Shown here: positions 7,167 through 47,770 of the stretch, one piece after another
How the letters are laid out: every line of letters begins with the position of its first letter
Position numbering within the stretch: position 1 is the first letter of the stretch
Assembly: GCA_000092065.1 (NCBI GenBank)
Contig: CP000593.1
Reading direction: 5' to 3' (one strand)
From: Ostreococcus lucimarinus
Lineage: Eukaryota
DNA length: 64,000 nucleotides
The notes under the pieces: generated by a model
What the model was told of the DNA's origin: nothing
The model's input: the letters and a program-made list of their open reading frames with translations, nothing else
Databases searched by the model: none
Translations under genes and position numbers: made by a program

Positions 7167-8102
7167 TCACTTGCGCAGGGCGCAACAACCGCCGCACACG
7201 CTATTGAACATTCGCACAAGCGGACTGAGCTCGGCGCCGTCGCCGCCCCGACCGCCTTTGCCTTCGCCCATGAACTGCGAACTCGATCGACTGAGCGAGT
7301 TCACGCCTCTCGCGGCTAAATCGATGACGACCTGACCGGTCTTCGTGTTCCCGACCACGGGCATGTCGTCCTTGTACTGCTCGAAATCCATCTCGGCGCC
7401 GTTTTCAGTCAACCCGGCTTCGAGCTCCAAGCTCGCGATGCTCTCGTGCAATCGCGACTTGCTCGTCGTTAAACTATCGCTCACCGCGTTTATCCGCCCA
7501 CTCACGCTCCCGAGCTCGCTCTTTTTATCGTTCCTCGCCGTCGCACCCCCAGCCACGCGTTCGCTCGGCAGCGAAAAATCAACCGAAAACTCGCTCGCGA
7601 GCTCATCCGCGTCCGCCGCGCTCCCATCGTCGTCCACCGTGCTCCCGTACATCATCGAGTACCCGACCAACGAATTTTCATCGTTCATCGATCGTCCATC
7701 GCCGCTATCTCCGCTCTTCACGCTCCATTTATCCCCTCCTCGTTCCCGTTCTCGTTCCCGTTCGCCGCGCGTCGTCCCGCTCGTCCCGTTCGCCCCTCGC
7801 GGCGCCTGTCCCGTCCCCGTTCGTTTCTCCGCGAACGACTCCAGCTGCCGCACCAGCGCCGTGAGTTCGTTATCTCCGCCCTCCTCGTCCTCCTCGCCGT
7901 CGTACGGCGAGACGAGCGTCGATCGCGGTTTCGATGCGTCGCGCGCGTCCGCGTCTCTGAATTCCCTCAGCGCGCGCTCCGTGAGCTCCACCGCCTGCAC
8001 CGTGCGCGCGCGCGTGTCCGACAGGCGATGCGAGACGTCGTCCGCGCTCGCGCGCGCGCGCGCGAGGTCCACCGACGCGTCCGCGCGAGGGCGCGGCGGC
8101 AT
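7167..8102 (-). CDS. Hypothetical protein (acidic, Ser/Gly-rich, ending in Cys cluster ...VCGGCCALRK)
   Basis: The ORF is 311 aa and its distal two-thirds has a non-repetitive, protein-like composition. The overlapping plus-strand ORF 7345..8370 is S/L/P/R-rich and looks antisense. I recognise no domain. The 5' third contains an (RE)n microsatellite, so the true start is uncertain. Confidence 0.4.
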   Translation of the reverse strand: MPPRPRADASVDLARARASADDVSHRLSDTRARTVQAVELTERALREFRDADARDASKPRSTLVSPYDGEEDEEGGDNELTALVRQLESFAEKRTGTGQAPRGANGTSGTTRGERERERERGGDKWSVKSGDSGDGRSMNDENSLVGYSMMYGSTVDDDGSAADADELASEFSVDFSLPSERVAGGATARNDKKSELGSVSGRINAVSDSLTTSKSRLHESIASLELEAGLTENGAEMDFEQYKDDMPVVGNTKTGQVVIDLAARGVNSLSRSSSQFMGEGKGGRGGDGAELSPLVRMFNSVCGGCCALRK

Positions 8103-9182: not shown

Positions 9183-10633
9183 TCATCGCTTGCGCATGTT
9201 CACGCCCGCTCTGAGAACCTCATCCGTGCAGAGTAACTGCGTGGCGATGATGGGCGCAGAGTGCAGAATTTGCTGTTTGACGAGAAAGTTGTCGTAGATA
9301 CCACTCATGGTGGGGTCGAAGGGCTCGCCGATGCTGATATCGAAACCGACGACGTTGCCTCTGTCGTGCTCCTCTTGCATGTCGATGATGGCGTCTTGCG
9401 GATCGTAACCGCTGTTCTCCGCGAGTGTCTTCGGGACCACGAGCATGGCTTCCGCAAACGCCTCGACGCCGCGTTTCGCGCGACCTTCGACCATCTTGGT
9501 GACGTTCTCCTTCAAGTGCTTGTTCAAGGCCATCTCAAACGCACCCGCGCCCGGAACCACGGCCTTGTCGGTCAACACATTCTTCACCGCCCGCAAGCCA
9601 TCTCGCACCGCATCCTTGAGCTGTGCGATGGTGTGATCGTTCGAGCCTTTTAAAAGTACCGTGCACGACGTCGGGTTGACGACTTTTTCCACAAAAGTGT
9701 ACTTTTCCTCGCCCAAGACGTACTCGTACACTTCGCCGGCGTGGCCCAAAATTTCCGGCGAGAGTTCCTCAACAGAGTTGATGCATTGACCACCACATGC
9801 GAGGACGAGACGCTCCATGTTTCGGCGCTTGGCGCGACGAAGTCCCATAATGCCTTCCTTACAGAGCATGTCCAGAGAGATTGGGTCGATCCCCTTTTGT
9901 GTGATGACGACGAAACCCTTGTCGTTGCCGTCGCACACCTGCTTCTTGAGCGCGATCACCTTGCGCACGGTTTCATCGGTGTACGCGCGCTCGGCGGCGA
10001 CCATCTTCTCGCGCTGTTCCGCATCGGTGTACATGAACGTCGAGTTCACCTCCGATCGTTCGTATTCCAGGCTGATGTTACACGTCAACACGAACGCGTC
10101 CTCCACGTATCTCTTCATATCCGGATGTCTCGCCCCGTGGTCGAGGACCAAACCCTGAATCAATTTGGTTTCGTCATCCGTCTGATGCTTCATGGTCATG
10201 ATCTCCACCATGTGCAAATCGATCGACTCTTCCGGTTTGGCGATGCACAACACAGCGTCGACGACGATCGTCGTCAACTTATCAGCCAACTCTTCCCGCA
10301 ACTTTGTTCGCAACGCCGTGCGCGCCACGCACAACAACATTTCTCGATCCGGCGCTTCCACACCCGGCGCCGCGCGCTTGAACGTTTCCAAAAACTTCAG
10401 CGACTCGCGTTTCGCCACATCGAATCCCTCCACGATCACTCTCGGATGCAAACCCTCATTCAAATACCGCTCCGCTTGCTTCAACAACTCTCCGATGACG
10501 AGCACCGTCGTCGTCGTCCCGTCCCCGGTGATATCATCCTGCGCCACCGCCGTCCTCGCGATCATGATCGCCGTCGGGTTTTGAATCTGCATCTCTCTCA
10601 GCAGCACGTTCCCATCCTTCGTGAGCTTCAAAC
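9183..10633 (-). CDS. CCT6: T-complex protein 1 subunit zeta (CCT6), exon 2
   Basis: ...[21 protein letters not shown]...[17 protein letters not shown]...[15 protein letters not shown]...VPGAGAFE... aligns end-to-end with CCT-zeta. It joins exon 1 through a CAG acceptor with the motif tgcgtag|GTTTGAAG. Confidence 0.9.
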
Positions 10634-10796
10634 CTACGCACATCGATTTCAACATCGCCGTCAGTCGTTCGGTCAACAGAGTCAACGCCGCGCCGCGTTC
10701 GCGCGAAATCCAACAGATCACCGTCACCGCGCATCTCTCACGCGCCGCCGTGACGCGCGAAACCGCGATGTATCGACGAAACGATCGTACACGCAC
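10634..10796 (-). other. CCT6: Intron of CCT6 (163 nt, phase 1)
   Basis: The donor is GGAG|GTGCGTGT. An ACTGAC branch-like motif lies ~30 nt before the acceptor tgcgtAG. Splicing joins ...KMLVDGAGG to LKLTKDG..., exactly as in CCT-zeta orthologues. The summed exon lengths, 154 + 1451 = 1605 nt, are divisible by 3. Confidence 0.85.
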
Positions 10797-10950
10797 CTCC
10801 AGCACCGTCGACGAGCATCTTGATCGTCCCTTTCGGGCCTAAATTCGTCTTCATCACGTCTTGGAGACCCTTGGCGGCGTTGATGTTCATGAACAGCGCG
10901 GCATCGGCGTTCATGAGCTCGGCGTTGGGGTTGATGGACTTGAGCGACAT
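10797..10950 (-). CDS. CCT6: T-complex protein 1 subunit zeta (CCT6), exon 1
   Basis: [52 protein letters not shown] is the conserved CCT-zeta N-terminus. The reading frame breaks after this point unless the intron is removed. Confidence 0.9.
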
Positions 10951-34535: not shown

Positions 34536-36545
34536 ATGATGACGCCGTCGTACATGGAGTGGTATCGAGCGGCGATGGCGAACGGCGGCGTGGTGCCGGC
34601 GGCGGGGACGCCGTTGCAGGTGGTGTCTCAGCACGAGTTCGCGGTGCCGGTGGTGGTGCCGGTGAACTTAATGCCGGGTGGGGAGGGTATGTCACCGCCT
34701 GGGGTGGCGGATATGGGGTACGGGGGGTACGATCCGCACGCGATGGCGGCCGGTTCGTACGCGCCGGCGGGCGCGTACGGGGTGCCGCCGCCGATGATGA
34801 TGATGGGCGCGCCGGCGCCGCCGGGGGCGTACGGTGAGTACGCATACGCGGCGATGACGGCGGCGCAGCACGAGTATTACGCAGCCATGCATAACGCGCA
34901 TCATTACGACCACTACGGGTACGTGATGCCGCCTTACATGGGCGCGGGCTTTGTCCCTGGCGGTCGCGGATACGGCAGGCGATCGCCGGGAGGTCGCGGC
35001 GGTCGAGTGGGAGGTCGTGGCGGCCGAGGTCGCGGCGAGCAGTGGCGTAATGGTGTGCACGTGAACGGTGGTATCGTCGGTGGCCGCTTCTACGGCGCCA
35101 GTGGACGATATTTCGGCGATGGACGTGCGAACGAAAAGGCGGTGCCGTACACCGTCTTCGTCAAGGATGTGCCGGCGAGCGTGAGCGAACGCGAATTAGC
35201 GGATGTTTTCGCCTCGTGCGGCCGCATCATAGACTGTCGCATGTGCGGTGATGCGAACACACACAAGTTTAGCTACGCCTTTGTGGCGTTTGAGTGCGCC
35301 GAGGCGGTGGATCGGGCGTTATTGTTGGACAAGACGCCGCTCCACGGGAAAAACATCATGGTGAAGAAGAGCGACACCGCGGTGATCCCAGTGAACCCGT
35401 TACTGCTACCGCAGAATGAACGAGAGGTTGAATCGTGCGCGAGGACAATTTACGTCGCAAACGTCGACAAGACCGTGGACTCGCACGCGTTGAAGTTACT
35501 TTTCGAGGACCGCGCCGGCCCCGTCAACCGCTTGCATTTGCAAGTGAAGAACAACGCCGTGGCGAATGTAGCCTTCGTAGAGTTCGTCGACCTCGAAAGC
35601 GTGGGAACCGCGCTGCATTTGACGGGTGAACAGCTTGGAAACCGCATGATTCGCGTGAGTGCGTCAAAGACGCCGCTCCGTTTGCATCGACGAACGAATC
35701 ACGGATCCGCGGCTTCGACTTCGGGCGACTCGTCTGCCGAATCGCAGCGCGCAACCATGCCACCGTTCCCTTACCCGTACTCGACGTCCACCCGGACCAT
35801 CGGTGATGAACCGACGACGCCGGAGTCGCCGCCGTGCAAAGTTTACGTGAGGAACATTCCGAAAACTTTATCTCCAGGGAGTCTCAGGGCGATGTTTTCC
35901 GAATGTGGACAAGTGAGACACGTCGAGTTGCTCACCAACCCAAAGAGTAAGTTTCCGTACGCTTTCATAGACTTTGAGGACAACGAAGCGGTAAAGCGCG
36001 CGTTGGATTTAGACGGCAAAGAAGTGGATGATTGCCAGCTCAAAGTTGAGATCTCGCACAGCAAAAAGCGCGCCCTGACACGGCCATTGGATCCAGTAGC
36101 GCAAGAAAAGGCGGATCGCACGGTTTACGTGACGGATATCGACCCTGAGATCGAACCGACGCTCGTGCGCGACAAGTTTGAGGAGGAATGCGGTGAGGTG
36201 GCGTTATTCTGGTACAAGGCGTTCGAAAAGGGCGAGAAGCAAGCCATCGCCTTCATCGAGTTCGCTGAACTGAGCTCTGTGGGTAAGGCGTTGAAGCTGT
36301 GTCGGACGCACTTTTTGTGTGACTCGCGCTTGGTCAAGGTTCGACACTCCGTCACAGCGTTGACACCCAAAGAAGGTCATCCCGGGACGTGCCACACTCC
36401 TGAATTAGACAGCCCCGCGAGCTCGAGCGGTGATGAAGGTCCGGATGATCGCGAGAGCGTCGTGCGTAATTTATCGTCTCCGCTCGACGCCGAAATCGTC
36501 GCGGCGAAGGTTGAGAAGTTAGGCATGAAGAACGCCGCGGCGTAG
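34536..36545 (+). CDS. CID (CTC-interacting-domain)-like RNA-binding protein with four RRMs
   Basis: The four RRM cores are VFVKDVP...YAFVAF, TIYVANVDKTVDSHALKLLFEDRAGPVNRLHLQ...ANVAFVEF...RVSASKTP, KVYVRNIP...YAFIDF and TVYVTDID...IAFIEF. The second matches the CID11/12-type RRM. The N-terminus is Tyr/Gly/Met-rich and low in complexity. The ATG at 34536 lies inside a GC-driven ORF that opens at 33993. Confidence 0.75.
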   Translation: MMTPSYMEWYRAAMANGGVVPAAGTPLQVVSQHEFAVPVVVPVNLMPGGEGMSPPGVADMGYGGYDPHAMAAGSYAPAGAYGVPPPMMMMGAPAPPGAYGEYAYAAMTAAQHEYYAAMHNAHHYDHYGYVMPPYMGAGFVPGGRGYGRRSPGGRGGRVGGRGGRGRGEQWRNGVHVNGGIVGGRFYGASGRYFGDGRANEKAVPYTVFVKDVPASVSERELADVFASCGRIIDCRMCGDANTHKFSYAFVAFECAEAVDRALLLDKTPLHGKNIMVKKSDTAVIPVNPLLLPQNEREVESCARTIYVANVDKTVDSHALKLLFEDRAGPVNRLHLQVKNNAVANVAFVEFVDLESVGTALHLTGEQLGNRMIRVSASKTPLRLHRRTNHGSAASTSGDSSAESQRATMPPFPYPYSTSTRTIGDEPTTPESPPCKVYVRNIPKTLSPGSLRAMFSECGQVRHVELLTNPKSKFPYAFIDFEDNEAVKRALDLDGKEVDDCQLKVEISHSKKRALTRPLDPVAQEKADRTVYVTDIDPEIEPTLVRDKFEEECGEVALFWYKAFEKGEKQAIAFIEFAELSSVGKALKLCRTHFLCDSRLVKVRHSVTALTPKEGHPGTCHTPELDSPASSSGDEGPDDRESVVRNLSSPLDAEIVAAKVEKLGMKNAAA

Positions 36546-36601
36546 GGCACGACACCAGAGAATGTACATATAAACTAAGTGTGATATACTACTACAATAT
36601 T

Positions 36602-38011
36602 CTACTGCGCCTCGGCTATGCCGCGAACGATGCCGTTCGCGTGCGCCAAGCCGGTGACGATGACGCACGTGACGACTTCGTCGTCGTCTTCATCAATCCG
36701 CGGCGCTTGCGACGCCTCGACGCTCGCGCTCGCGAGTAAATACCCAGCCGGATGTGTCTCTAACGCGTGCACGTCGCACTCGTCCATTCCTTCGATCCAA
36801 ACCTCCAATTTCCGAGCCTTTGTCGTCGGGCGCTCGCCCTCCACCACGCGCGTCACTCGTGCGCGGCGCATGGAATCCTCAACGGCCACGGTTCCAGTAC
36901 GTCGAGCCGCATCGCCTAGAATCTCAAAGCAAGAACTACTCACGTAATGTCTCGCGCGCCCGAGTAAACACCCGAGCTCGGCGCCCACGAGGGATCCGCC
37001 ATTCGCTTCCGCGAGCGAGTCCATGAGCGCTAGCCAACGCGGCTCCCACAAGTTCAGCCTTCTCGTTTCGCCCCGTTTCAGCGGACGTTTCAGCGTGAAG
37101 CACGGCACCGCGCCAGCATCACTCGGGGTGAATGTTTGCATGCTCTTCTTCGTCGCCGACGGATCGGTGGAAAACCCAAATCGCACGCGGCGTACCCGCC
37201 CTCGAGCGATGCCCGAGCACACGTCGACGGCGTTCAACGCGTTGGCGCACAACACCTCGTCTCTTTCCATCCACAGCGTCTCCACGAGCGGGCAAAATAA
37301 TAAAAGCGCAAGGAACACGCCGACTGCGTCCACGAGACCGTTCTCCGCTCCGTTCGGCATCGCCAAGCTCGCCAACGTCGCCGCGACGAACGCCGCCGCC
37401 GGTCCCGCGAGCGGCGTCAGATTTCTCGGCTCGTCCATGAGAGCTCTCGCCACGTCCGCCGCGGCGAGCGCGCCATCGCTCGAAACACCCACGGATCCAC
37501 CATCCCACGCGTTTTTCACGTACGCCAACACCGTTTTCCACCGTTCGATCGCGAAAGGGTTCGTCCCGAACGCGCGAGCCGCCAACGCCTCGCCTATACC
37601 TCTCGCCCGCACGTCCCCGTACACCGTCAGCGCGTCCTCGCGCTCTGATTCGATGATACCGGTCAACAAATCGCTCCCGTATTCGGAATCGTCGATCACG
37701 CGCGCGCGTTCGACGAAGCTCGCGACGAGGGCGTCGGCGCGCTCTTGGTCGAGCTCGAGCACCACAGCCTGCGGTTTCGCGCGTCGTATGACCCGTCGAA
37801 CGTCTGCCGCCGCCGCCGCGCTCGCGTGGGAGGTACCGACGACGTAGAATTCGCACTGCGTCGCGCGGGAGGGTCGAGAGACGTCGAGTTTGAGGCTTTT
37901 TGAGACGAATCCCGTGCCGGGAGGGAGCCAGGTCGGGACGGCGGCGCCCGACGACGACGACGACGACGACGGGACGTCCGGGACGACGACGCGCACGCAC
38001 GCGGCGCGCAT
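36602..38011 (-). CDS. TraB-family protein with C-terminal Lon-N (substrate-binding)-like domain
   Basis: EFYVVGTSHASAAAAADVRRVIRRAKPQAVVLELDQER is the TraB/PrgY-type N-terminal motif. The C-terminal ...FTLKRPLKRGETRRLNLWEPRWLALMD resembles the Lon N-domain core (LPLFPL...L.IFEPRY). Confidence 0.7.
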   Translation of the reverse strand: MRAACVRVVVPDVPSSSSSSSGAAVPTWLPPGTGFVSKSLKLDVSRPSRATQCEFYVVGTSHASAAAAADVRRVIRRAKPQAVVLELDQERADALVASFVERARVIDDSEYGSDLLTGIIESEREDALTVYGDVRARGIGEALAARAFGTNPFAIERWKTVLAYVKNAWDGGSVGVSSDGALAAADVARALMDEPRNLTPLAGPAAAFVAATLASLAMPNGAENGLVDAVGVFLALLLFCPLVETLWMERDEVLCANALNAVDVCSGIARGRVRRVRFGFSTDPSATKKSMQTFTPSDAGAVPCFTLKRPLKRGETRRLNLWEPRWLALMDSLAEANGGSLVGAELGCLLGRARHYVSSSCFEILGDAARRTGTVAVEDSMRRARVTRVVEGERPTTKARKLEVWIEGMDECDVHALETHPAGYLLASASVEASQAPRIDEDDDEVVTCVIVTGLAHANGIVRGIAEAQ

Positions 38012-38176
38012 GGCGATCGACGCCGACGTCGGGCGCCTCGCGCGCGTCGCGACGTGAAGTTTGGGTCGGTTCTCTGTGTGTGACGTAGCAATTTGTCTAT
38101 TCTACCCGACGGGAGGGACGACGACGACGACGCGGGCGGCCTACCTCGCTTCACCGCGGCCGCGATCGCGCGGCTT

Positions 38177-41463: not shown

Positions 41464-41577
41464 TTGTGCGTATGCATAAACAGTCTTCCTTAACTCAGCT
41501 GGTAGAGTGTCAGACTGTTAGGAAAAAGTCTCCGTCGAATATGACGGCTGCTCCGATAGAGATCTGGAAGCCGCGGG
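41464..41577 (+). tRNA. tRNA-Asn(GUU)-like sequence with a 41-nt insertion (intron-like) between positions 37 and 38; possibly a pseudo-tRNA or SINE head
   Basis: The cloverleaf can be drawn by hand. Acceptor TCTTCCT pairs with AGGAAGA and the discriminator is G. D-arm ACTC-AGCTGGTA-GAGT has G18G19 and an A-box-like TAACTCAGCTGG. The anticodon stem is TCAGA/TCTGG and the loop CTGTTA|A carries anticodon GTT. The T-arm GCGGG-ATCGAAA-CCCGC is B-box-like. T5 lies ~25 nt downstream. Unusual features are U1-A72 and A54. Confidence 0.4.
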
Positions 41578-41700
41578 ATCGAAACCCGCAGGAAGAGATG
41601 TGTCGACATCAAACCTTACTTTTTCCCATACCCGATTGTCCGTGATGGAAAAGCGACACGACAACACTGTGACTTTCGTCGTTTCGGGGTGACGGATAGT
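41464..41700 (+). mobile_element. tRNA-derived SINE-like repeat, copy 1 (full length with tRNA-like head)
   Basis: A ~222-nt body from gctggtagag to tatcgct is near-identical to 47434..47655. It ends in an A-rich tract (actttaaaaaatttatcgct) and is followed by T9 and a GC inverted repeat. Confidence 0.6.
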
Positions 41701-41840
41701 ACTTTAAAAAATTTATCGCTATGAGTAATAAAAATAAACTTTTTTTTTGAGTTGGGGCACCCCAACATGATAAAACCGCACATCGACGTTGATGTACCGC
41801 ATGTAAGATTTCTCCAGAACCAATCGTGTGAGTGAAGTGG

Positions 41841-42338
41841 TCAAGCCAAGCCGCGTAACTCATCTACCGTAAATTGATACTTGTCGAGACTGCGCTTCGA
41901 AGGCAGCGTGCCGCGCGCTCGGGCATTCTTGAGGCACGTCTTGCGCAGTATTCCTTTTGCGTGCTGCTTGTAATAATTGAGTTGTCTGTAGTTACCATCG
42001 CCGCCGTCCCGCTTCGGCGTATATTGAGCTCTGCTGTAGGCTGGACTCTCGTCCACGTTCTCGCGGCACGCGTGTTTCTGGCTGCGTCCAGCAGCTCGGG
42101 AGTTGAATAAGCCGTCACGCTTCTCTCTCATGTAGGCACCTTTACGTTGATGGAGCTCTCCAGCTGGAATGTCCTTTTCGAGAACTCTCACGTCCGCGTC
42201 GCCAAACGTGAAGATTGGATGTCGTGCGTATTTATGCGAGGCAAGGCGCGCTCTGAGCGAACCCGTCGTCGATCCGATGTACGTTTTGTTACATTTCGCA
42301 TTATCGCTAAACATTTCGTACACGCATCCCGACGGCAT
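41841..42338 (-). CDS. Free-standing GIY-YIG endonuclease-domain protein (homing-endonuclease/viral-like), located in a low-GC island
   Basis: MPSGCVYEMFSDNAKCNKTYIGSTTGSLRARLASHKY matches GIY-(x10)-YIG-ST..L..R...H. A downstream ...LFNS... supplies the conserved Asn region. The C-terminal 70 aa are basic. The ORF GC (~52%) is well below its neighbours (~68%). There is no RING, so it is not SLX1. Confidence 0.6.
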   Translation of the reverse strand: MPSGCVYEMFSDNAKCNKTYIGSTTGSLRARLASHKYARHPIFTFGDADVRVLEKDIPAGELHQRKGAYMREKRDGLFNSRAAGRSQKHACRENVDESPAYSRAQYTPKRDGGDGNYRQLNYYKQHAKGILRKTCLKNARARGTLPSKRSLDKYQFTVDELRGLA

Positions 42339-42521
42339 TTGTCCTGGTTACCTATCTATCCCTAAGAAAATATTGTTGCCAAAAGTGCCTCCTCCTGCGG
42401 TTTGCAGTCACATCCGAGAGACCATAGGTACGCGTATCGCTGCGTGGGCTGCAAGGTCCGGAATGTAGATACCGAACCGCCTGATTTCACACCTGGACGT
42501 TCGTGATCCGTCGAGACCTGA

Positions 42522-42710
42522 CGAAATGACGAACTTGTTTTGTCGTCCACAAATTCGTCAACCCGTCGTTCGGTGACACTTTGTGTGTACCAATGATGAA
42601 AATGACGAAATGTTAAAATATTTTAATGTTTATTTTTATTTTAGATCTATGACAAGCAACAGTGTGGACCTTTATGAAAACAGTTCGTCATTCGTCATTT
42701 CGTCAGGATC
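42522..42710. repeat. Inverted repeat pair (ctgacgaaatgacgaac ... gttcgtcat(tcgtcat)ttcgtcag) flanking an extremely AT-rich ~150-bp spacer, with a third direct copy (gaaaatgacgaaatg) inside
   Basis: The ~17-bp arms are reverse complements of each other, and the spacer is >75% A+T. Confidence 0.5.
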
Positions 42711-42772
42711 CAAACCATGGTCTTTTTGGTGTCTCGTTGAGTCTTCATATTGCAAATGTACGAATTACAAAA

Positions 42773-43069
42773 TTAGTATGAGCACCAGACGACCGCCGGC
42801 GCGAGCTCCGTCTCCCCTGTGTACCCATTGTCCTTCAGCCACTCGAAGCACCCGTCGCGGTGAATTTCCCAATAGACGCCCTTCTCGTCTCTACCTTGCC
42901 TCAGGTGGTCCTCTTCCATTGGGACCCTGTGGCCCTTTTCCTTCTTGAAGAAGTCCTTGAGCTTATTGCCGACCTTCGTCGCGCTATCTTGACCGCGCGC
43001 AGCCGCTGGCAACCACGTCTGGTATTCGATGAAGATGTCACTGTGTGCATAAAAATGACTTGCGCTCAC
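42773..43069 (-). CDS. Small ORF (98 aa) of unknown function downstream of ZNG1; it may be UTR rather than a gene
   Basis: The ORF opens with GTG and has no ATG until codon 51. Its composition is not GC-skewed (...GVYWEIHRDGCFEWLKDNGYTGE...). A TGTAA on this strand follows directly after its stop. Confidence 0.25.
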   Translation of the reverse strand: MSASHFYAHSDIFIEYQTWLPAAARGQDSATKVGNKLKDFFKKEKGHRVPMEEDHLRQGRDEKGVYWEIHRDGCFEWLKDNGYTGETELAPAVVWCSY

Positions 43070-43169
43070 ATCGGTGTGGGCTCACTATAAAGGACAAGCT
43101 TACATGTCGGAAGAGTTGCCCGAGTCCACATCTCCACCCTGTTCCGCTTCAGTGTCACCTAGAAAGACA

Positions 43170-44810
43170 TCAGACTAAGCCGTCGTTTTGAGAGGGCGCC
43201 GACTTTGCCTTTGGTTTTGCCTTCGACTTTGAAGTGGGTTGCGGCCTGATCTCCTCTTCGATCTCCTCGTCGTCGACCAAATCTTCGTCGATTTCTTCGT
43301 CGTCTTCGTCATCGACTTCGTCGTCTTCGTCTTCGTCGTCTTCGTCTAGAAAGACATCACCCATGACTGCTCTCCAGCCATCAGAACCCATTTCGAATTC
43401 TTCGTCGGTCAAGAGGCAAGAGTCCAACGTTGATTGAATTTCATCGTATTTAAGATCCTTGCCAATGAACACCAGTTCTTGTCGGCGATCACCATAAGGC
43501 CCCTCCCAGTCTTTACGAAGTTCTTGCTTTATCCCCTGTGAGCCGACCCAAGCATTTTTATTCAGCGCGGTCCATCGGCTTGATCCTTCGAGAGAGTAAA
43601 TATTACCAGCCTGACTGAAAACAATTATCAAGTCGTGGGCATCACTGAGCCACGTTACACCCTTCGAACGTAGCAGCACACCAATTTCACCTTCCCTTTT
43701 ACGGCGCTTGAGTTTCATCGCTTCTTGTCGCGCTCGAATATCTTTCACTGCACTCCAGTCTACACTTGGTGTCTCTTCATCTTTTTCTTCATCACGGTCA
43801 TCGGCCTCGAGGGAGCTGAAGAAGCGCTCGACAAATGAGCCTAAAAACCGTTTGGGATGAAAAGGTCTTCTGGCTCGGTAAATGAAAGACGTAATACCGA
43901 ACCGACTATCGTGACGTGTTTGGGAAGAACTTGGTGCAAGCGTGACCTCGCTTAAGGCTGTTTCTCTCATGCGAGCTCGCTTACAGCATGGAGACTCACC
44001 TTTGTCCCTAGCGCCGGCGCAGCATGACTTCACAGATGTTGCTTCTATCTCTTGTTCCCATGTTATGAAACCAGCAAAGTCATTCTCTTTGTAAAGTTTT
44101 GTATTGACGATTCGCGTAACGTCGATCGCGCCGTTCACAGCTTCAAGAATATCAGCACGTGAATTGAGAAGTTGTATCTGCGCTTTAATCTCGGCGAGTT
44201 GTTCGTCATCGACAGTGTCGACCTTGTTCAATACGACGACATTCGCGTACTCTATCTGTTCAGCCAACAATTGAGAGTAAGACTGCCTGTTCACAGCTGA
44301 CGCCCTGAAAGAATCAATCATGTCGAGAAAGTCACCTGCAGCGATGACCGTCACGCACGTATCCAGCCGCGCCAGTGTGCTCAAATGTTCATGCTCATCA
44401 ACGTGCGCAGCTTCATGATCGTGATCGTCCTCACAATTTGCGAAGAGTTTCGCAATTTCCGCCGGTTCCGACACTCCTGATGCCTCTACGATCATGTAGT
44501 CAAAATTGCCACTCTTGGCCATGTCCCCGATTTGTTTTACAAAGTCTCCGCTCAACGAACAGCACACGCATCCGTTCTGCATGGCAACCACCTCGTCGCT
44601 CTGCAGCAAAGCGGAATCATCGATTAATTTTTTGTCGATGTTCAACTCCGCGACGTCGTTCACGACGACGGCACACCGAAACTTTCCGTTCGCGTCTCGC
44701 TTAGCTTCGAGCACGCGTTTCAGAGTTGTCGTCTTCCCAGCGCCGAGGAACCCGCACAGCGTTGTCACCGGCAATCGATTATGATTGGCGATTGCGGCGG
44801 GTGTGGACAT
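43170..44810 (-). CDS. ZNG1: COG0523/CobW-family GTPase (ZNG1-like zinc metallochaperone) with acidic C-terminal tail
   Basis: PVTTLCGFLGAGKTTTLKRVL is the P-loop. The CxCC metal-binding motif is present in ...MQNGCVCCSLSGD.... A CobW_C domain and a D/E-rich tail follow. The ATG is at 44810. Confidence 0.85.
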   Translation of the reverse strand: MSTPAAIANHNRLPVTTLCGFLGAGKTTTLKRVLEAKRDANGKFRCAVVVNDVAELNIDKKLIDDSALLQSDEVVAMQNGCVCCSLSGDFVKQIGDMAKSGNFDYMIVEASGVSEPAEIAKLFANCEDDHDHEAAHVDEHEHLSTLARLDTCVTVIAAGDFLDMIDSFRASAVNRQSYSQLLAEQIEYANVVVLNKVDTVDDEQLAEIKAQIQLLNSRADILEAVNGAIDVTRIVNTKLYKENDFAGFITWEQEIEATSVKSCCAGARDKGESPCCKRARMRETALSEVTLAPSSSQTRHDSRFGITSFIYRARRPFHPKRFLGSFVERFFSSLEADDRDEEKDEETPSVDWSAVKDIRARQEAMKLKRRKREGEIGVLLRSKGVTWLSDAHDLIIVFSQAGNIYSLEGSSRWTALNKNAWVGSQGIKQELRKDWEGPYGDRRQELVFIGKDLKYDEIQSTLDSCLLTDEEFEMGSDGWRAVMGDVFLDEDDEDEDDEVDDEDDEEIDEDLVDDEEIEEEIRPQPTSKSKAKPKAKSAPSQNDGLV

Positions 44811-44867
44811 GATGTACGGCGATCGACGTCTCCGCGCGCGAACGAGCCGAAGAGGCGTCGCGAAGTG

Positions 44868-45142
44868 CGGCGATGCGCGCGCGTCGTGCACGTGTCGACG
44901 ATTCGCGTCGTGCACGTGTCGAGGATCGTCGTACGCGACGCCCCGCGAAGCCCATCACGGATCGCGTCGCGACGCGCGTCGTAAACATGTCGACACGCAT
45001 GTCGACATATTTACCCACGCGCGTGTACGCATTGAACCCCGTGATGCATCTATATACGAAAAACGTCTCGACGCACATGTCGACATATTTCGACATATCC
45101 AAGTACCACCGAGATGTGTCGACACTGCGGCGGATGTCGACA
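44868..45142. promoter_or_regulatory. Cluster of GTCGAC-centred palindromes (5x [A]TGTCGACA[T], plus a 2x 23-nt tandem cgtcgtgcacgtgtcga(c/g)g) in the ZNG1/ZIP bidirectional promoter
   Basis: ATGTCGACA occurs at ~44987, 45000, 45078, 45117 (as TGTGTCGACA) and 45135. Two copies extend to CATGTCGACATATTT. The tandem repeat with CACGTGTCGAC lies at ~44875-44925. Confidence 0.55.
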
Positions 45143-45368
45143 TTTTGTCGTTCGCGAGTCGTGACTTATAAACGACCGCCCTCCATCGCGCCGGTTCGGT
45201 TCGTATGCCGCTTTAGTTTGTGCGCAGCCGCACTTACCGACGCCGGCGAAGACGACGACGACGACGGAAACGATGACGAACGAAAACACGAAGAACACGA
45301 AGACGACGATGCCGCCGCGCGAACGCGCACGCGGTGCGAGGACGGTCGAGCGACGACGAGGGCGAACG

Positions 45369-46802
45369 ATGCGCTGCGCGAGCGCGCTCGGTGGTGGCAT
45401 CGCGATCGTCGCGAGCGCGCTCGCGCAGCGCGGCGCGCACGCGTCCGGCGCGCACGCATTCGAATGGGCTGGAATCTTTGAGACGCCAGAGAATGAATAC
45501 GTGTGGCAGGCGCAAAAGGTGGCCGATAAGTACGCCGCCGATACCATGAAAATGGTCATCTACGACGAAATCGCCGCCGGACACGACGAGCTCGAAGCCC
45601 GCGAGGATAGCGGTGATACCGCAATCGGGGGAGCTTGTACGACGGCTAAGATACGAGATAGTGTTTTGACACCTGATAGTGGGTGTGTCAACCTTGAATT
45701 TGACAACACCTGGCACACGACGCCGTTTAAGATTAATACGACTGGCATCGACGCGATCTCAATCTTCGCTGAGCACGTTCCCACCGAGTTCGAGCGCGAC
45801 GCGCACTATCTCAAGGACCTCCACGGAGATGACGTGGTGCCAAAAGCTTCACTTCCCGAAGCATCCACCGTGAGCGAATCGAAATCAAAACCGTGGGCCA
45901 ACGCCATTGGGGCGGCAATTATCGTCAATATCGTCACACTTTCTGGTGTGGTCTTTCTCATCCCGAGTATCGCTAAGAAGCAGAAAGCGTACCCTGAAAC
46001 TGTGAGTTGCACAATTAACTCGTTTGCCGCCGGCGCACTTCTTTCGGCTGCGTTTTATCTGATGTTCTACGAAGCCACGCATTTAATCAAACCTGCTGGC
46101 TCGGATGAGGCAGAGCAGACCGCATGGTGGGCTTCCGCTTCTATCTTCGGCTTTCTCATGGCCTACTTCATCGACTTTGGTATCTCTGTCGTGTTCCCAA
46201 CTCTTGGAAATACAGCGAAGACAACCGATGCGGAACTTGCAGTCAAAGGCGCTCAAGATGACTGTGATACTTGTACTTGTAACTCACACAAGTATCGCGT
46301 TCGAAGTGGTATCATTCTTGGAGATTTCATGCACAACCTAGTGGATGGTATTTTCATTGGCTTCGGCTTTCTGAACTGCGACAGTACCATGGGATGGTCG
46401 ATCACCGCCGCGACCGTCTATCACGAAATCGCTCAAGAGCTTGCTGACTACTTGGTGCTCGTAGACCCCTTCCAGGGCGATCTCGCGCCGTTGCCGACGC
46501 TGACTTTAAACTTCGTTTCCGGCTTGAGTGTCATTCTTGGCGTCCTCATTAGTGTTGGATCGGGAAATAACAACGACTTCTGGCATGGACTGCTGCTCGC
46601 CTTCGGTGCTGGAGTCTATCTGCAAATCGCCGCCGCAGAGTGCATGCCCCGAGTATCAGTGAGCGCCACTTCACCTCGTCTTCGCGCGACGAGCATTCTC
46701 ACCTTCATCGTCGGCGTTGTTGCCATCAGTCTCGTGCTCCTCAACCACAAGCATTGCACAGGCGGTGGCGGTGGCGGAGACTCACACGCACACGCGCACT
46801 AA
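45369..46802 (+). CDS. ZIP (Zrt/Irt-like) family metal transporter
   Basis: MRCASALGGGIAIVASALA is a signal peptide. Multiple TM segments follow. HNLVDGIFIGFGF and YHEIAQELADYLVL are variants of the ZIP TM-IV and TM-V motifs HNFxDGLAIG and HEIPHELGDF. The C-terminus has a His-rich stretch HKHCTGGGGGGDSHAHAH. Confidence 0.75.
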   Translation: MRCASALGGGIAIVASALAQRGAHASGAHAFEWAGIFETPENEYVWQAQKVADKYAADTMKMVIYDEIAAGHDELEAREDSGDTAIGGACTTAKIRDSVLTPDSGCVNLEFDNTWHTTPFKINTTGIDAISIFAEHVPTEFERDAHYLKDLHGDDVVPKASLPEASTVSESKSKPWANAIGAAIIVNIVTLSGVVFLIPSIAKKQKAYPETVSCTINSFAAGALLSAAFYLMFYEATHLIKPAGSDEAEQTAWWASASIFGFLMAYFIDFGISVVFPTLGNTAKTTDAELAVKGAQDDCDTCTCNSHKYRVRSGIILGDFMHNLVDGIFIGFGFLNCDSTMGWSITAATVYHEIAQELADYLVLVDPFQGDLAPLPTLTLNFVSGLSVILGVLISVGSGNNNDFWHGLLLAFGAGVYLQIAAAECMPRVSVSATSPRLRATSILTFIVGVVAISLVLLNHKHCTGGGGGGDSHAHAH

Positions 46803-46906
46803 TGAGAGCGGTAAAAAAATGTCAATTACTATCAAATCAAGTTGTGGCAAACACACCCACGGCCACTGACGGAGATCTATTTTTCAAGCTAGAGGATCAT
46901 ATAAAT

Positions 46907-46911
46907 TGTAA
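46907..46911 (+). promoter_or_regulatory. TGTAA poly(A)-signal-like motif downstream of the ZIP gene
   Basis: aaattgTGTAAatcg lies ~105 nt after the stop at 46802. Confidence 0.35.
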
Positions 46912-47025
46912 ATCGAAACGCTCTTCGTAATTTACGGCACCTGTTCCTCGATCTCCTGGCGAACATCGATGAATTATTTCGATAAGATGTCCCAGATGTT
47001 ACCCACACCACGGTACTTGTGAAGC

Positions 47026-47137
47026 TTAATCCAGATACGCGCGCACGCCTTTCTGAAGCATGGTCGGTACCTCGGCTTTCAACTTGTCTGGGAGCGTCGC
47101 GTCGGCGTCCTTGACCTCGCGCAGAAAATCGAGCACC
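47026..47137 (-). CDS. Small hypothetical protein, exon 2
   Basis: It encodes ...VLDFLREVKDADATLPDKLKAEVPTMLQKGVRAYLD*. This frame is reached only by removing a 53-nt intron. Confidence 0.35.
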
Positions 47138-47190
47138 CTATTGGTGGAGAACTGTCAGGGAAGGATCCAAGGTGGCGGCATTTGATACAC
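47138..47190 (-). other. Putative 53-nt intron (GTGTAT...CTGAC...AATAG) in the small hypothetical gene
   Basis: The donor is CT|GTGTATC and the acceptor is ccaccaatAG|G. CTGAC lies ~14 nt upstream of the acceptor. The length of 53 nt restores a long ORF across the two flanking frames. Confidence 0.35.
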
Positions 47191-47369
47191 AGGTTGCGCC
47201 AGGCTTTGTTAGACAGCAACGGACTCGATTTTACATCATCCGCCAGTATTGCAATTCCTACACGCTTCCCATTTAGCCAGTGCTTGGGCTCCTCGAATTG
47301 GTCTGTTTCGGGATTATACAGACTGAGCATCTCTGGGGTCAAATACTCGTCCCACACGGAGGCGTTCAT
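47191..47369 (-). CDS. Small hypothetical protein, exon 1 (from first ATG)
   Basis: It encodes MNASVWDEYLTPEMLSLYNPETDQFEEPKHWLNGKRVGIAILADDVKSSPLLSNKAWRN. Its composition is moderate in GC and coding-like. The ORF opens upstream at a TTG. An acceptor-like tttacAG lies just 3' of repeat copy 2. Confidence 0.35.
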
Positions 47370-47433
47370 CAGGTGCCCATCGAGTTCCTTGTATTGCTTC
47401 AATCTCGTCGCGGTATCTCTGTAAACAATTTTG

Positions 47434-47655
47434 CTGGTAGAGTGTCAGACTGTTAGGAAAAAGTCTCCGTCGAATATGACGGCTGCTCCGATAGAGATCT
47501 GGAAGCCGCGGGATCGAAACCCGCAGGAAGAGATGTGTCGACATCACACCTTACTTTTTCCCACACCCGATTGTCCGTGATGGAAAAGCGACACGACAAC
47601 ACTGTGACTTTCGTCGTTTCGGGGTGACGGATAGTACTTTAAAAAATTTATCGCT
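47434..47655 (+). mobile_element. tRNA-derived SINE-like repeat, copy 2 (5'-truncated, begins in the D-loop)
   Basis: It is ~98% identical to 41478..41700. It lacks the first 14 nt of the tRNA-like head. It is followed by a 12-bp palindrome, CCCCCATGGGGG. Confidence 0.6.
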
Positions 47656-47770
47656 GTGAGATTCACCCCCATGGGGGGAGCTCGGCTTCCCTGATTTTTT
47701 TGTCACTTTTTCACGACGCCGCGAACCCCTCGTCCCGAACTCCGAGACGCGACGCGAGACATCCATCCCA

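Follow-up and report, generated by a model that had tools for sequence, protein, structure and literature searches.

A ZDRE-type palindrome array as a candidate metal-deficiency enhancer between a COG0523 GTPase gene and a ZIP transporter gene of Ostreococcus lucimarinus

In yeast the activator of the zinc-deficiency response is Zap1, a C2H2 zinc finger protein which acts through a palindromic zinc-responsive element (ZRE), ACCTTNAAGGT, in the promoters of ZRT1, ZRT2 and its own gene. In bacteria the Fur-family repressor Zur uses a palindromic operator which a zinc-importer gene and a divergent COG0523 GTPase gene share. In land plants the response element for zinc deficiency (ZDRE), a 10-bp imperfect palindrome RTGTCGACAY, is bound by the Arabidopsis F-group bZIP proteins bZIP19 and bZIP23 and is located in the promoters of ZIP transporter genes, mostly in two copies (PMC5476651, PMC9643250). 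The central C of the element is essential, TGTAGACA being left unbound by F-bZIPs (PMC5476651). The F-bZIP subfamily was proposed to have originated with the first land plants and, according to Castro et al. (2017) and a review from 2022, there are no F-bZIPs in green algae, O. lucimarinus and Chlamydomonas reinhardtii being named (PMC5476651, PMC9643250). Here we describe an array of ZDRE-type palindromes in a 64-kb stretch of O. lucimarinus DNA (contig CP000593.1, called the window below), where it occupies the promoter shared by divergent genes for a COG0523 GTPase and a ZIP-family transporter.

The yeast element and protein are unrelated to those of the algae, and the likeness to Zur regulons is one of analogy only, Zur being a repressor and not a bZIP activator. 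The land-plant regulon, for instance the ZIP4 promoter with its two ZDREs, is closer. The same RTGTCGACAY is present in at least two copies upstream of ZIP genes, and related algae encode a bZIP with the N..AV..YR contacts and a Cys/His-rich candidate metal-sensing region. However, the algal factor has a C-terminal FTHGDxCPC motif and Cys/His residues in the zipper instead of the N-terminal sensor motif, and in the algae the regulator, the transporter and a COG0523 chaperone are clustered with sites in the regulator's own promoter. COG0523 genes are targets in the algae, whereas the plant targets named are ZIP and NAS genes (PMC5476651, PMC9643250). The element itself is already known; what is new is that it occurs in Mamiellophyceae, that it is paired with a bZIP whose sensor region differs, and that regulator, transporter and chaperone are clustered. 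Full-text searching of the literature turned up neither ZDREs nor F-bZIP-like regulators described from chlorophyte algae.

The palindrome array in the divergent promoter

The COG0523 and ZIP genes point apart from a 558-bp intergenic region, 44811-45368, Table 1. The palindrome TGTCGACA was observed seven times in the window; in dinucleotide shuffles the mean was 1.43 and the highest count 5, none of the 100 shuffles reaching seven. Five copies fall within 155 bp of the divergent promoter (44988-44995, 45000-45007, 45078-45085, 45117-45124 and 45135-45142), and the remaining two are found one in each copy of a transfer RNA (tRNA)-derived direct repeat. All seven sites match RTGTCGACAY. The array is most likely, as far as its sequence can tell, a metal-deficiency enhancer in the form of a homotypic cluster of ZDRE-type sites. 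The enrichment is limited to perfect matches, as one-mismatch variants of RTGTCGACAY occur at chance level. One such variant, ATTTCGACAT at 45087-45096, directly follows ZDRE 3, and decayed copies are present in the tandem pair on the COG0523 side of the array (GTGTCGACGA, 44892-44901, and GTGTCGAGGA, 44916-44925). A preliminary description of this DNA had listed five palindromes between the gene starts at 44810 and 45369, two of them extended to CATGTCGACATATTT, and the letters bear this out. It had also seen the tandem pair, which is indeed present, though with a unit of 24 nt and not 23.

Table 1. Coordinates of the features in the window.
Feature	Position	Strand	Remarks
tRNA-Asn(GUU) gene, complete	41484-41597		42-nt intron; Rfam 49 bits
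Direct repeat, 228 nt	41498-41725 and 47433-47660		one ZDRE-like copy each
ZDRE-like copy GTGTCGACAT	41600-41609		left direct repeat, 3 nt past the end of tRNA-Asn
COG0523 (CobW-type) GTPase gene	43170-44810	-	546 aa; PF02492 5e-41, PF07683 1e-18
24-nt tandem pair	44880-44926		G-box-like CACGTG at 44889-44894 and 44913-44918
ZDRE 1, ATGTCGACAC	44987-44996		COG0523 side; 12 bp from ZDRE 2; allele A only
ZDRE 2, ATGTCGACAT	44999-45008		perfect 10-bp palindrome; first bases of the 78-nt duplicated unit
ZDRE 3, ATGTCGACAT	45077-45086		within the truncated second copy of the 78-nt unit
ZDRE 4, GTGTCGACAC	45116-45125		distal site of the conserved ZIP-proximal pair
ZDRE 5, ATGTCGACAT	45134-45143		proximal site of the conserved pair; TATA-like box about 25 bp downstream
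Second conserved palindrome-like element, GAGTCGTGACTT	45156-45167		consensus GAGTCRYGACYY; ZIP side of the ZDRE pair
TATA-like box, TATAAA	45167-45172		after the GAGTCGTGACTT element
ZIP-family transporter gene	45369-46802	+	477 aa; PF02535 9e-22
ZDRE-like copy GTGTCGACAT	47535-47544		right direct repeat; tRNA fragment lacking the first 14 nt

The window's COG0523 gene has the features of the ZNG1 type, namely CobW nucleotide-binding and CobW_C domains and a CxCC motif, which reads GCVCC in the translation and is accompanied by the His-rich stretch DDHDHEAAHVDEHEH. It is only about 30% identical to the CobW of the ZIP-bZIP-CobW clusters discussed below and is a different paralogue; therefore two separate COG0523 paralogues stand behind ZDREs. 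Its translation begins M-S-T, from ATGTCCACA (44801-44810), a ZDRE with one mismatch. At one of the related loci (L008; L numbers are our labels for the loci compared) a ZDRE at 7538-7547 overlaps the bZIP start codon, ATG TCG ACA, giving M-S-T again. The shared start may be a coincidence or a trace of the reuse of a promoter and 5' end.

Promoter haplotypes were compared using metagenome contigs 99.5-99.9% identical to the window. The ZIP-proximal pair (45117, 45135), the GAGTC element and the TATA-like box are kept in every haplotype covering them. Allele A is a block at 44843-45094 that contains the three distal ZDREs along with the 24-nt tandem pair and a tandem duplication of 78 nt. Allele B (L002, L004, L012 and a second copy in L006) has in its place AT-rich DNA of about 320 nt that is unrelated to it, the breakpoints being at 44842 and 45095, and L062 and L109 have the proximal pair only. 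In L006 an allele A block with a full second 78-nt unit is found upstream of a COG0523 copy adjoining an LHC (chlorophyll a/b-binding) gene. The best reading of these sequences is that a three-site COG0523 promoter was fused head-to-head to an ancestral two-site ZIP promoter, giving the five-site array. Alleles A, with five sites, and B, with two, constitute a natural enhancer-dosage polymorphism.

Conservation in Mamiellophyceae and the neighbouring bZIP

A CCT-zeta chaperonin encoded at 9183-10805 of the window has its best named relatives in Viridiplantae, Mantoniella beaufortii being the nearest of these at 78% identity; further relatives, 91-95% identical, are found on metagenome or genome contigs as long as 887 kb. 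With the ZIP identity given below, this places the window in an Ostreococcus-like alga of the Mamiellophyceae, a chlorophyte group. Loci for comparison were collected through ZIP orthologues (75-89% amino-acid identity) and through the bZIP gene which neighbours them. ZIP orthologues in eight related Mamiellophyceae lineages have 2-5 upstream ZDREs; one of them is the O. tauri chromosome 6 gene ostta06g02310, whose product is 84% identical to the window's ZIP. Such numbers of sites were recorded for the window, L007, L008, L009, L014, L016 (O. tauri), L019 and L132. The 18-bp spacing of the window's pair at 45117 and 45135 recurs exactly in a pair upstream of ZIP in L007 and L019, in L008, and in L009 and L010. 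In O. tauri three sites, spaced by 12 bp, lie between ZIP and bZIP. Five are present in its sister L132, and the divergent lineage of L014 and L015 has two perfect ATGTCGACAT sites. Given that the number of sites is 2, 3 or 5 among lineages, expansion of the site cluster has been recurrent. The 10-mers are constant between lineages while the spacers and flanks diverge, and in the 21 tabulated sites, drawn from six lineages, position -1 is R and position +1 is Y without exception (42 of 42 flanks).

In seven non-redundant loci amounting to 145 kb there are 26 sites where 3.8 are expected (Poisson P about 1e-13), and 22 of the 26 are in approximately 4.4 kb of intergenic DNA adjoining ZIP, bZIP or CobW genes. 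Upstream ZDREs belonging to CobW itself are present at the loci checked, L007, L017 and L019. The second conserved element, GAGTCRYGACYY, is made of two TGACTC-like halves facing outward and stands on the ZIP side of the ZDREs in five lineages, with copies in the window, L007 (7786), L008 (7641), L009 (2413), L011 and L016 (5873), with extra copies just beyond the 3' end of ZIP in L007 and L011.

A metagenome scan for the motif pair RTGTCGACAY-N8-RTGTCGACAY served as an unbiased search for the regulon and returned 109 loci. Fourteen of these are Mamiellophyceae ZIP/bZIP/CobW loci; 94 have no homologue of ZIP, bZIP or CobW, and many of them show a GC content or repeat structure unlike that of these algae. 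One Mamiellophyceae-like contig has four ATGTCGACAT sites at spacings of 18, 18 and 12 bp (L110:2187-2245), flanked by an open reading frame (ORF) for a predicted membrane protein of 88 aa and a Methyltransf_16 lysine-methyltransferase gene. Possibly this locus, too, belongs to the regulon.

In L007, L008, L009, L016, L019 and L132 the immediate divergent neighbour of ZIP encodes a bZIP protein of approximately 210-230 aa (gene calls up to 265 aa). These proteins score 28-31 bits with Pfam bZIP_2, above the cut-off of 22.3. In L014 the ZIP is too diverged for a BLASTP match to the other ZIPs at E 1e-5, yet a bZIP gene is again adjacent, in convergent orientation. The L017 contig stops shortly upstream of the bZIP. 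A CobW/COG0523 gene comes next after the bZIP in L007, L016, L017, L019 and L132; in O. tauri the cluster consists of ostta06g02310 (ZIP), ostta06g02300 (bZIP) and ostta06g02290 (CobW) on chromosome 6 (L016, CAID01000006.2: 372826-385455). ZDREs are also found in the bZIP's own promoter. In L132 the cluster continues to a second ZIP gene, whose product has EF-hands, and to a GATA factor. The bZIP loci and the window's locus have no flanking genes in common by which a bZIP lineage could be matched to the window's species. The preliminary description had proposed the palindromes as a candidate cis-element for a dimeric, zinc-responsive regulator. The full match to the ZDRE, its recurrence upstream of ZIP in eight further Mamiellophyceae lineages and the adjacent gene for a bZIP, an obligate dimer with F-type contact residues, support this proposal computationally, zinc being the putative signal.

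The basic region of the algal bZIP reads NRAAVRRYRER, with N-R-x-A-V-R-R-Y-R constant through the family. Compared with the F-bZIP sequence NR[EA]AVRKYREK it shows conservative K/R changes only, besides one position which is already E or A within the F-bZIPs. The F-bZIP alignment in the supplement of Castro et al. (2017) gives GNREAVRKYREKKKA for AtbZIP19 and GNRAAVRKYREKKKA for monocot F-bZIPs; according to this alignment the five base-contacting positions N, A, V, Y and R are identical in the algal bZIP and the F-bZIPs. Among 47 sugar-beet bZIP motif sites (PMC11319121) the signature appears only in two proteins of the NREAVRKYR type, which are also the top scorers against the algal sequence. 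The likeness continues into the zipper, with an Asn at an 'a' position, the Leu register and the motif EAE[VL][ST]x[LT]K[CW]LL, and HHalign of the algal bZIP against the F-bZIP domain gave a probability of 96.6% (E = 6e-10). The prediction that the algal protein works like an F-bZIP is well supported by these comparisons.

The best match to the algal bZIP domain in the PDB is 1ci6, and animal ATF4/ATF5-type bZIPs share with the algal domain the Tyr of N..AA..YR and an 'EC' at the start of the zipper. They have Ala where the algal bZIP and the F-bZIPs have Val. ATF4 binds CARE/CRE-type sites rather than TGTCGACA and is not known to be a metal sensor. The O. tauri protein is annotated as ATF4/5-like (PMC4855317). 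The algal bZIP may be an F-bZIP orthologue or a convergent look-alike.

A set of Cys and His residues is invariant in the algal bZIPs: C63, placed at 'a' in the zipper's first heptad, H86, and H173-x3-C177-P-C179 (O. tauri numbering). In a divergent clade the C-terminal motif is lengthened to HDDGCPCPGHHSHHG. In an AlphaFold2 model of the O. tauri monomer only the 61-residue bZIP helix is confident (mean predicted local distance difference test score, pLDDT, 62), and the model is uninformative on a metal site. A word-indexed protein search with the bZIP profile retrieved 29 close relatives only, to which a HMMER scan added one divergent algal clade, ATF4-like animal proteins and two F-like proteins, P0329 and P0346, whose loci have no ZDREs. 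A further candidate relative, P0330, was rejected as a low-complexity artefact.

The proposed circuit and the nature of the signal

Published RNA sequencing (RNA-seq) allows the O. tauri cluster to be followed under iron limitation. Normalised counts were taken from the supplementary tables of Lelandais et al. (2016), in which cells kept for one week at 54 nM or 1080 nM Fe-EDTA were sampled at four time points (PMC4855317). The low/high iron values were 110/9.6, 157/15, 135/16 and 235/13 for CobW (ostta06g02290; log2 fold change 3.5) and 7.8/1.9, 18.6/5.3, 13.5/4.0 and 19.1/3.3 for ZIP (ostta06g02310; log2 fold change 2.0), the ZIP transcript being hardly detectable in replete medium (PMC4855317). 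The bZIP gene (ostta06g02300) gave 32/7.5, 93/31, 195/229 and 74/30, a log2 change of 0.41 overall with 2.1 and 1.6 at the first two time points (PMC4855317). The O. tauri cluster is co-regulated by trace-metal status.

We regard it as probable that the array is a ZDRE-type cluster acting as a shared enhancer, from which ZIP and COG0523 are driven divergently when labile metal, most probably zinc, falls, and that the regulator belongs to the Mamiellophyceae bZIP family. Each palindrome would be bound by a dimer of the small bZIP of the ostta06g02300 family, encoded beside the ZIP genes of sister lineages. The bZIP would respond to a drop in the labile metal pool, most likely of zinc, by activating ZIP and COG0523, and in the sister lineages the bZIP gene as well. 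The metal would probably be sensed by C63, H86 and H173-x3-C177-P-C179 in place of the N-terminal sensor motif of F-bZIPs. The ancestral module would be the ZIP-proximal pair, 18 bp apart and approximately 25-55 bp upstream of the TATA-like box, and the three distal sites would represent a COG0523-side promoter block, with its 78-nt tandem duplication, fused head-to-head to the ZIP promoter in some haplotypes only. The identity of the motif, its enrichment, its conservation across lineages, the linkage to bZIP, the F-type contact residues and the metal-dependent co-expression of the O. tauri orthologues are direct observations. From them we infer that the sites are bound, which way regulation runs, that the signal is zinc and that the Cys/His residues act as sensor.

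Several findings weigh against this circuit. Haplotypes with allele B do without three of the five sites, hence the three distal sites are dispensable. No bZIP gene was found when the 64-kb window was searched with the algal bZIPs using tblastn. The F-bZIP sensor motif, C[ST]HTH[ST]CNP[PT]GPE-H[ST]HTC[FL]H[AV]HT, is missing from all 28 aligned algal bZIPs. Profile comparison places the algal bZIP no further from animal ATF4-like proteins (HHalign E = 1e-14) than from F-bZIPs, and a HMMER scan of 1.84 billion proteins, a library without names, showed no recognisable land-plant F-bZIP among 14 of the 36 matches. The expression evidence concerns limitation for iron, not zinc.

The expression results raise the possibility that the element and the bZIP are as proposed but that the signal is iron, or a general divalent-metal or redox stress. 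On that view ZIP would import Fe(II)/Mn, and the circuit would amount to an iron-limitation regulon. ZIP, bZIP and CobW of O. tauri do rise after one week in low Fe-EDTA, ostta06g02310 was placed among the iron-regulated ZIPs by Lelandais et al. (PMC4855317), and in L009 a ferric-reductase-like gene lies 1.8 kb from ZIP. However, the motif is identical to the zinc-deficiency element of plants, and COG0523 proteins with CxCC and His-rich stretches are typically linked to zinc according to the available part of PMC2770081. Iron deprivation in O. tauri also turns on 56 genes encoding zinc-containing proteins, and iron uptake changes with zinc status; for zinc limitation the same study gives physiology only (PMC4855317). 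With 56 such genes induced by low iron the demand for zinc could rise, so that a secondary zinc-deficiency response might be triggered. An iron signal is considered unlikely, though it is the most serious of the alternatives.

A different possibility is that another factor binds the palindromes and that the adjacency of bZIP and ZIP is synteny with no regulatory link. The window encodes no bZIP. The family assignment of the bZIP is ambiguous, and the second conserved palindrome GAGTCRYGACYY shows that further factors act on the promoter. Against this, linkage of ZIP and bZIP survives in the divergent L014, where the orientation of the genes is convergent, the bZIP's own promoter has sites, and its contact residues are identical to those of the sole factors known to bind the 10-mer. 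We consider a different factor to be improbable, and more so than an iron signal.

Returning to the ZDRE-bZIP circuit, the occurrence of the land-plant element in Mamiellophyceae suggests, at the level of sequence, that this control circuit is older than the land plants, contrary to the proposal in the literature (PMC5476651, PMC9643250). A broader scenario can be offered only tentatively, as we think it rather less than an even chance. The circuit would be ancestral to all green plants, with the Mamiellophyceae retaining the DNA-binding half combined with a C-terminal Cys/His sensor in a self-regulated cluster, and the window's ZIP and second COG0523, with their five-site enhancer, would have become a tRNA-repeat cassette of low GC content, variable in copy number and between haplotypes. 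The choice between common origin and convergence is testable in O. tauri, which is culturable, for which RNA-seq is at hand and which is transformable with polyethylene glycol according to the available part of PMC8002553. The literature found describes no cis-element or factor of this kind, and the genes described here are the first concrete candidate for a zinc/trace-metal regulon in marine picophytoplankton. The five-site allele A and two-site allele B offer a natural experiment, and the gene set could act as a marker for trace-metal stress in ocean metatranscriptomes. If true, the alternative Cys/His sensor would widen the understanding of metal sensing by bZIPs.

tRNA repeats and the surrounding cassette

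The two palindromes outside the promoter belong to what had been described as tRNA-derived repeats. This holds for the right copy, which lacks the first 14 nt of the tRNA, whereas the left copy contains a complete tRNA-Asn(GUU) gene. ARAGORN found no tRNA here because of the 42-nt intron, and the gene was detected with Rfam. The 14-mer GAGATGTGTCGACA, said to lie 3' of both repeats as well as in the promoter, does occur three times in the window, at 41595-41608, 45111-45124 and 47530-47543, but the coordinates first given for the two outer copies were off by approximately 15-25 nt. In some haplotypes the tRNA-flank copies are changed, to TGTCAACA on the right (L003, L004) and to TGTTGACA on the left (L004), by CpG transitions to TpG/CpA, and the promoter pair is unaltered in all haplotypes covering it. 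Given that the flank copies decay while the promoter pair stays constant, they look like neutral passengers, and on this sequence evidence they are probably incidental. Additional sites in other lineages do not adjoin tRNAs.

The preliminary description had also suggested that the motif might belong to a dispersed repeat family, but outside the promoter it occurs in the 64-kb window only in the two copies of one tRNA-derived repeat, where it is mutated in some haplotypes, and this alternative is not supported. More generally, the array as a non-regulatory by-product of a recombination hot spot or of mobile-cassette ends would suit both a much rearranged locus (alleles A and B, a tandem or circular junction in L006, a mosaic 3' part of ZIP, tRNA-derived repeats and a polymorphic GIY-YIG insertion) and the single ZDRE copy in each flanking repeat, but it is largely refuted by the retention of sites upstream of ZIP at ordinary syntenic loci without repeats (L007, L008 and O. 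tauri), agrees poorly with the constrained R/Y flanks, the decay of flank but not promoter copies and the lack of further copies in 64 kb, and is very improbable.

The cassette itself, 42712-47432, spans 4.7 kb and comprises an ORF of 98 aa, COG0523, the promoter, ZIP and ORF107. Its GC content is 0.525, compared with 0.62-0.66 just beyond it (36000-38176, and from the JmjC gene on). It is bracketed by direct repeats derived from the 3' part of the intron-bearing tRNA-Asn(GUU) gene and its 3' flank, 141 nt long in most haplotypes and 228 nt in the window. By its sequence this layout is that of an element integrated into a tRNA gene, which is unusual in a green alga. No integrase was found among the window ORFs scanned and no empty tRNA site was seen among the haplotypes. 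A viral origin of the cassette was considered and rejected, as scans of IMG/VR gave no relatives of the GIY-YIG ORF or of ZIP.

L006:1-6988, corresponding to window 42712-47573, reads cassette-repeat-cassette, head to tail, with 42712 joined to 47573. Taken as sequence, this junction implies a tandem or circular form of the cassette and the existence of several contexts or copy numbers. L011, L012 and L013 are nearly identical to the window from 43200 to about 45900, after which the 3' two-thirds of ZIP are only 69-89% identical. The promoter of L012 is allele B, and in L011, which alone extends beyond COG0523, the flank there differs from that of the window. This pattern suggests that ZIP is mosaic or gene-converted, or that the cassette has a paralogous copy.

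Two insertions are associated with the repeats. The first, of 1073 bp (41639-42711), contains a weak GIY-YIG-like ORF (41841-42338, Pfam E = 0.009) and is located exactly at the junction of repeat and cassette, its first 87 nt duplicating sequence on the right-hand side of the other repeat copy. The window and L004 contain this insertion, which is absent from L001, L002, L003, L005 and L006. The second, of 86 nt, has the GTAAGT...CAG form of a spliceosomal intron. In the right repeat of L003 (1242-1327) and L004 (2724-2809) it interrupts the tRNA fragment within its T-arm, at window position 47523.

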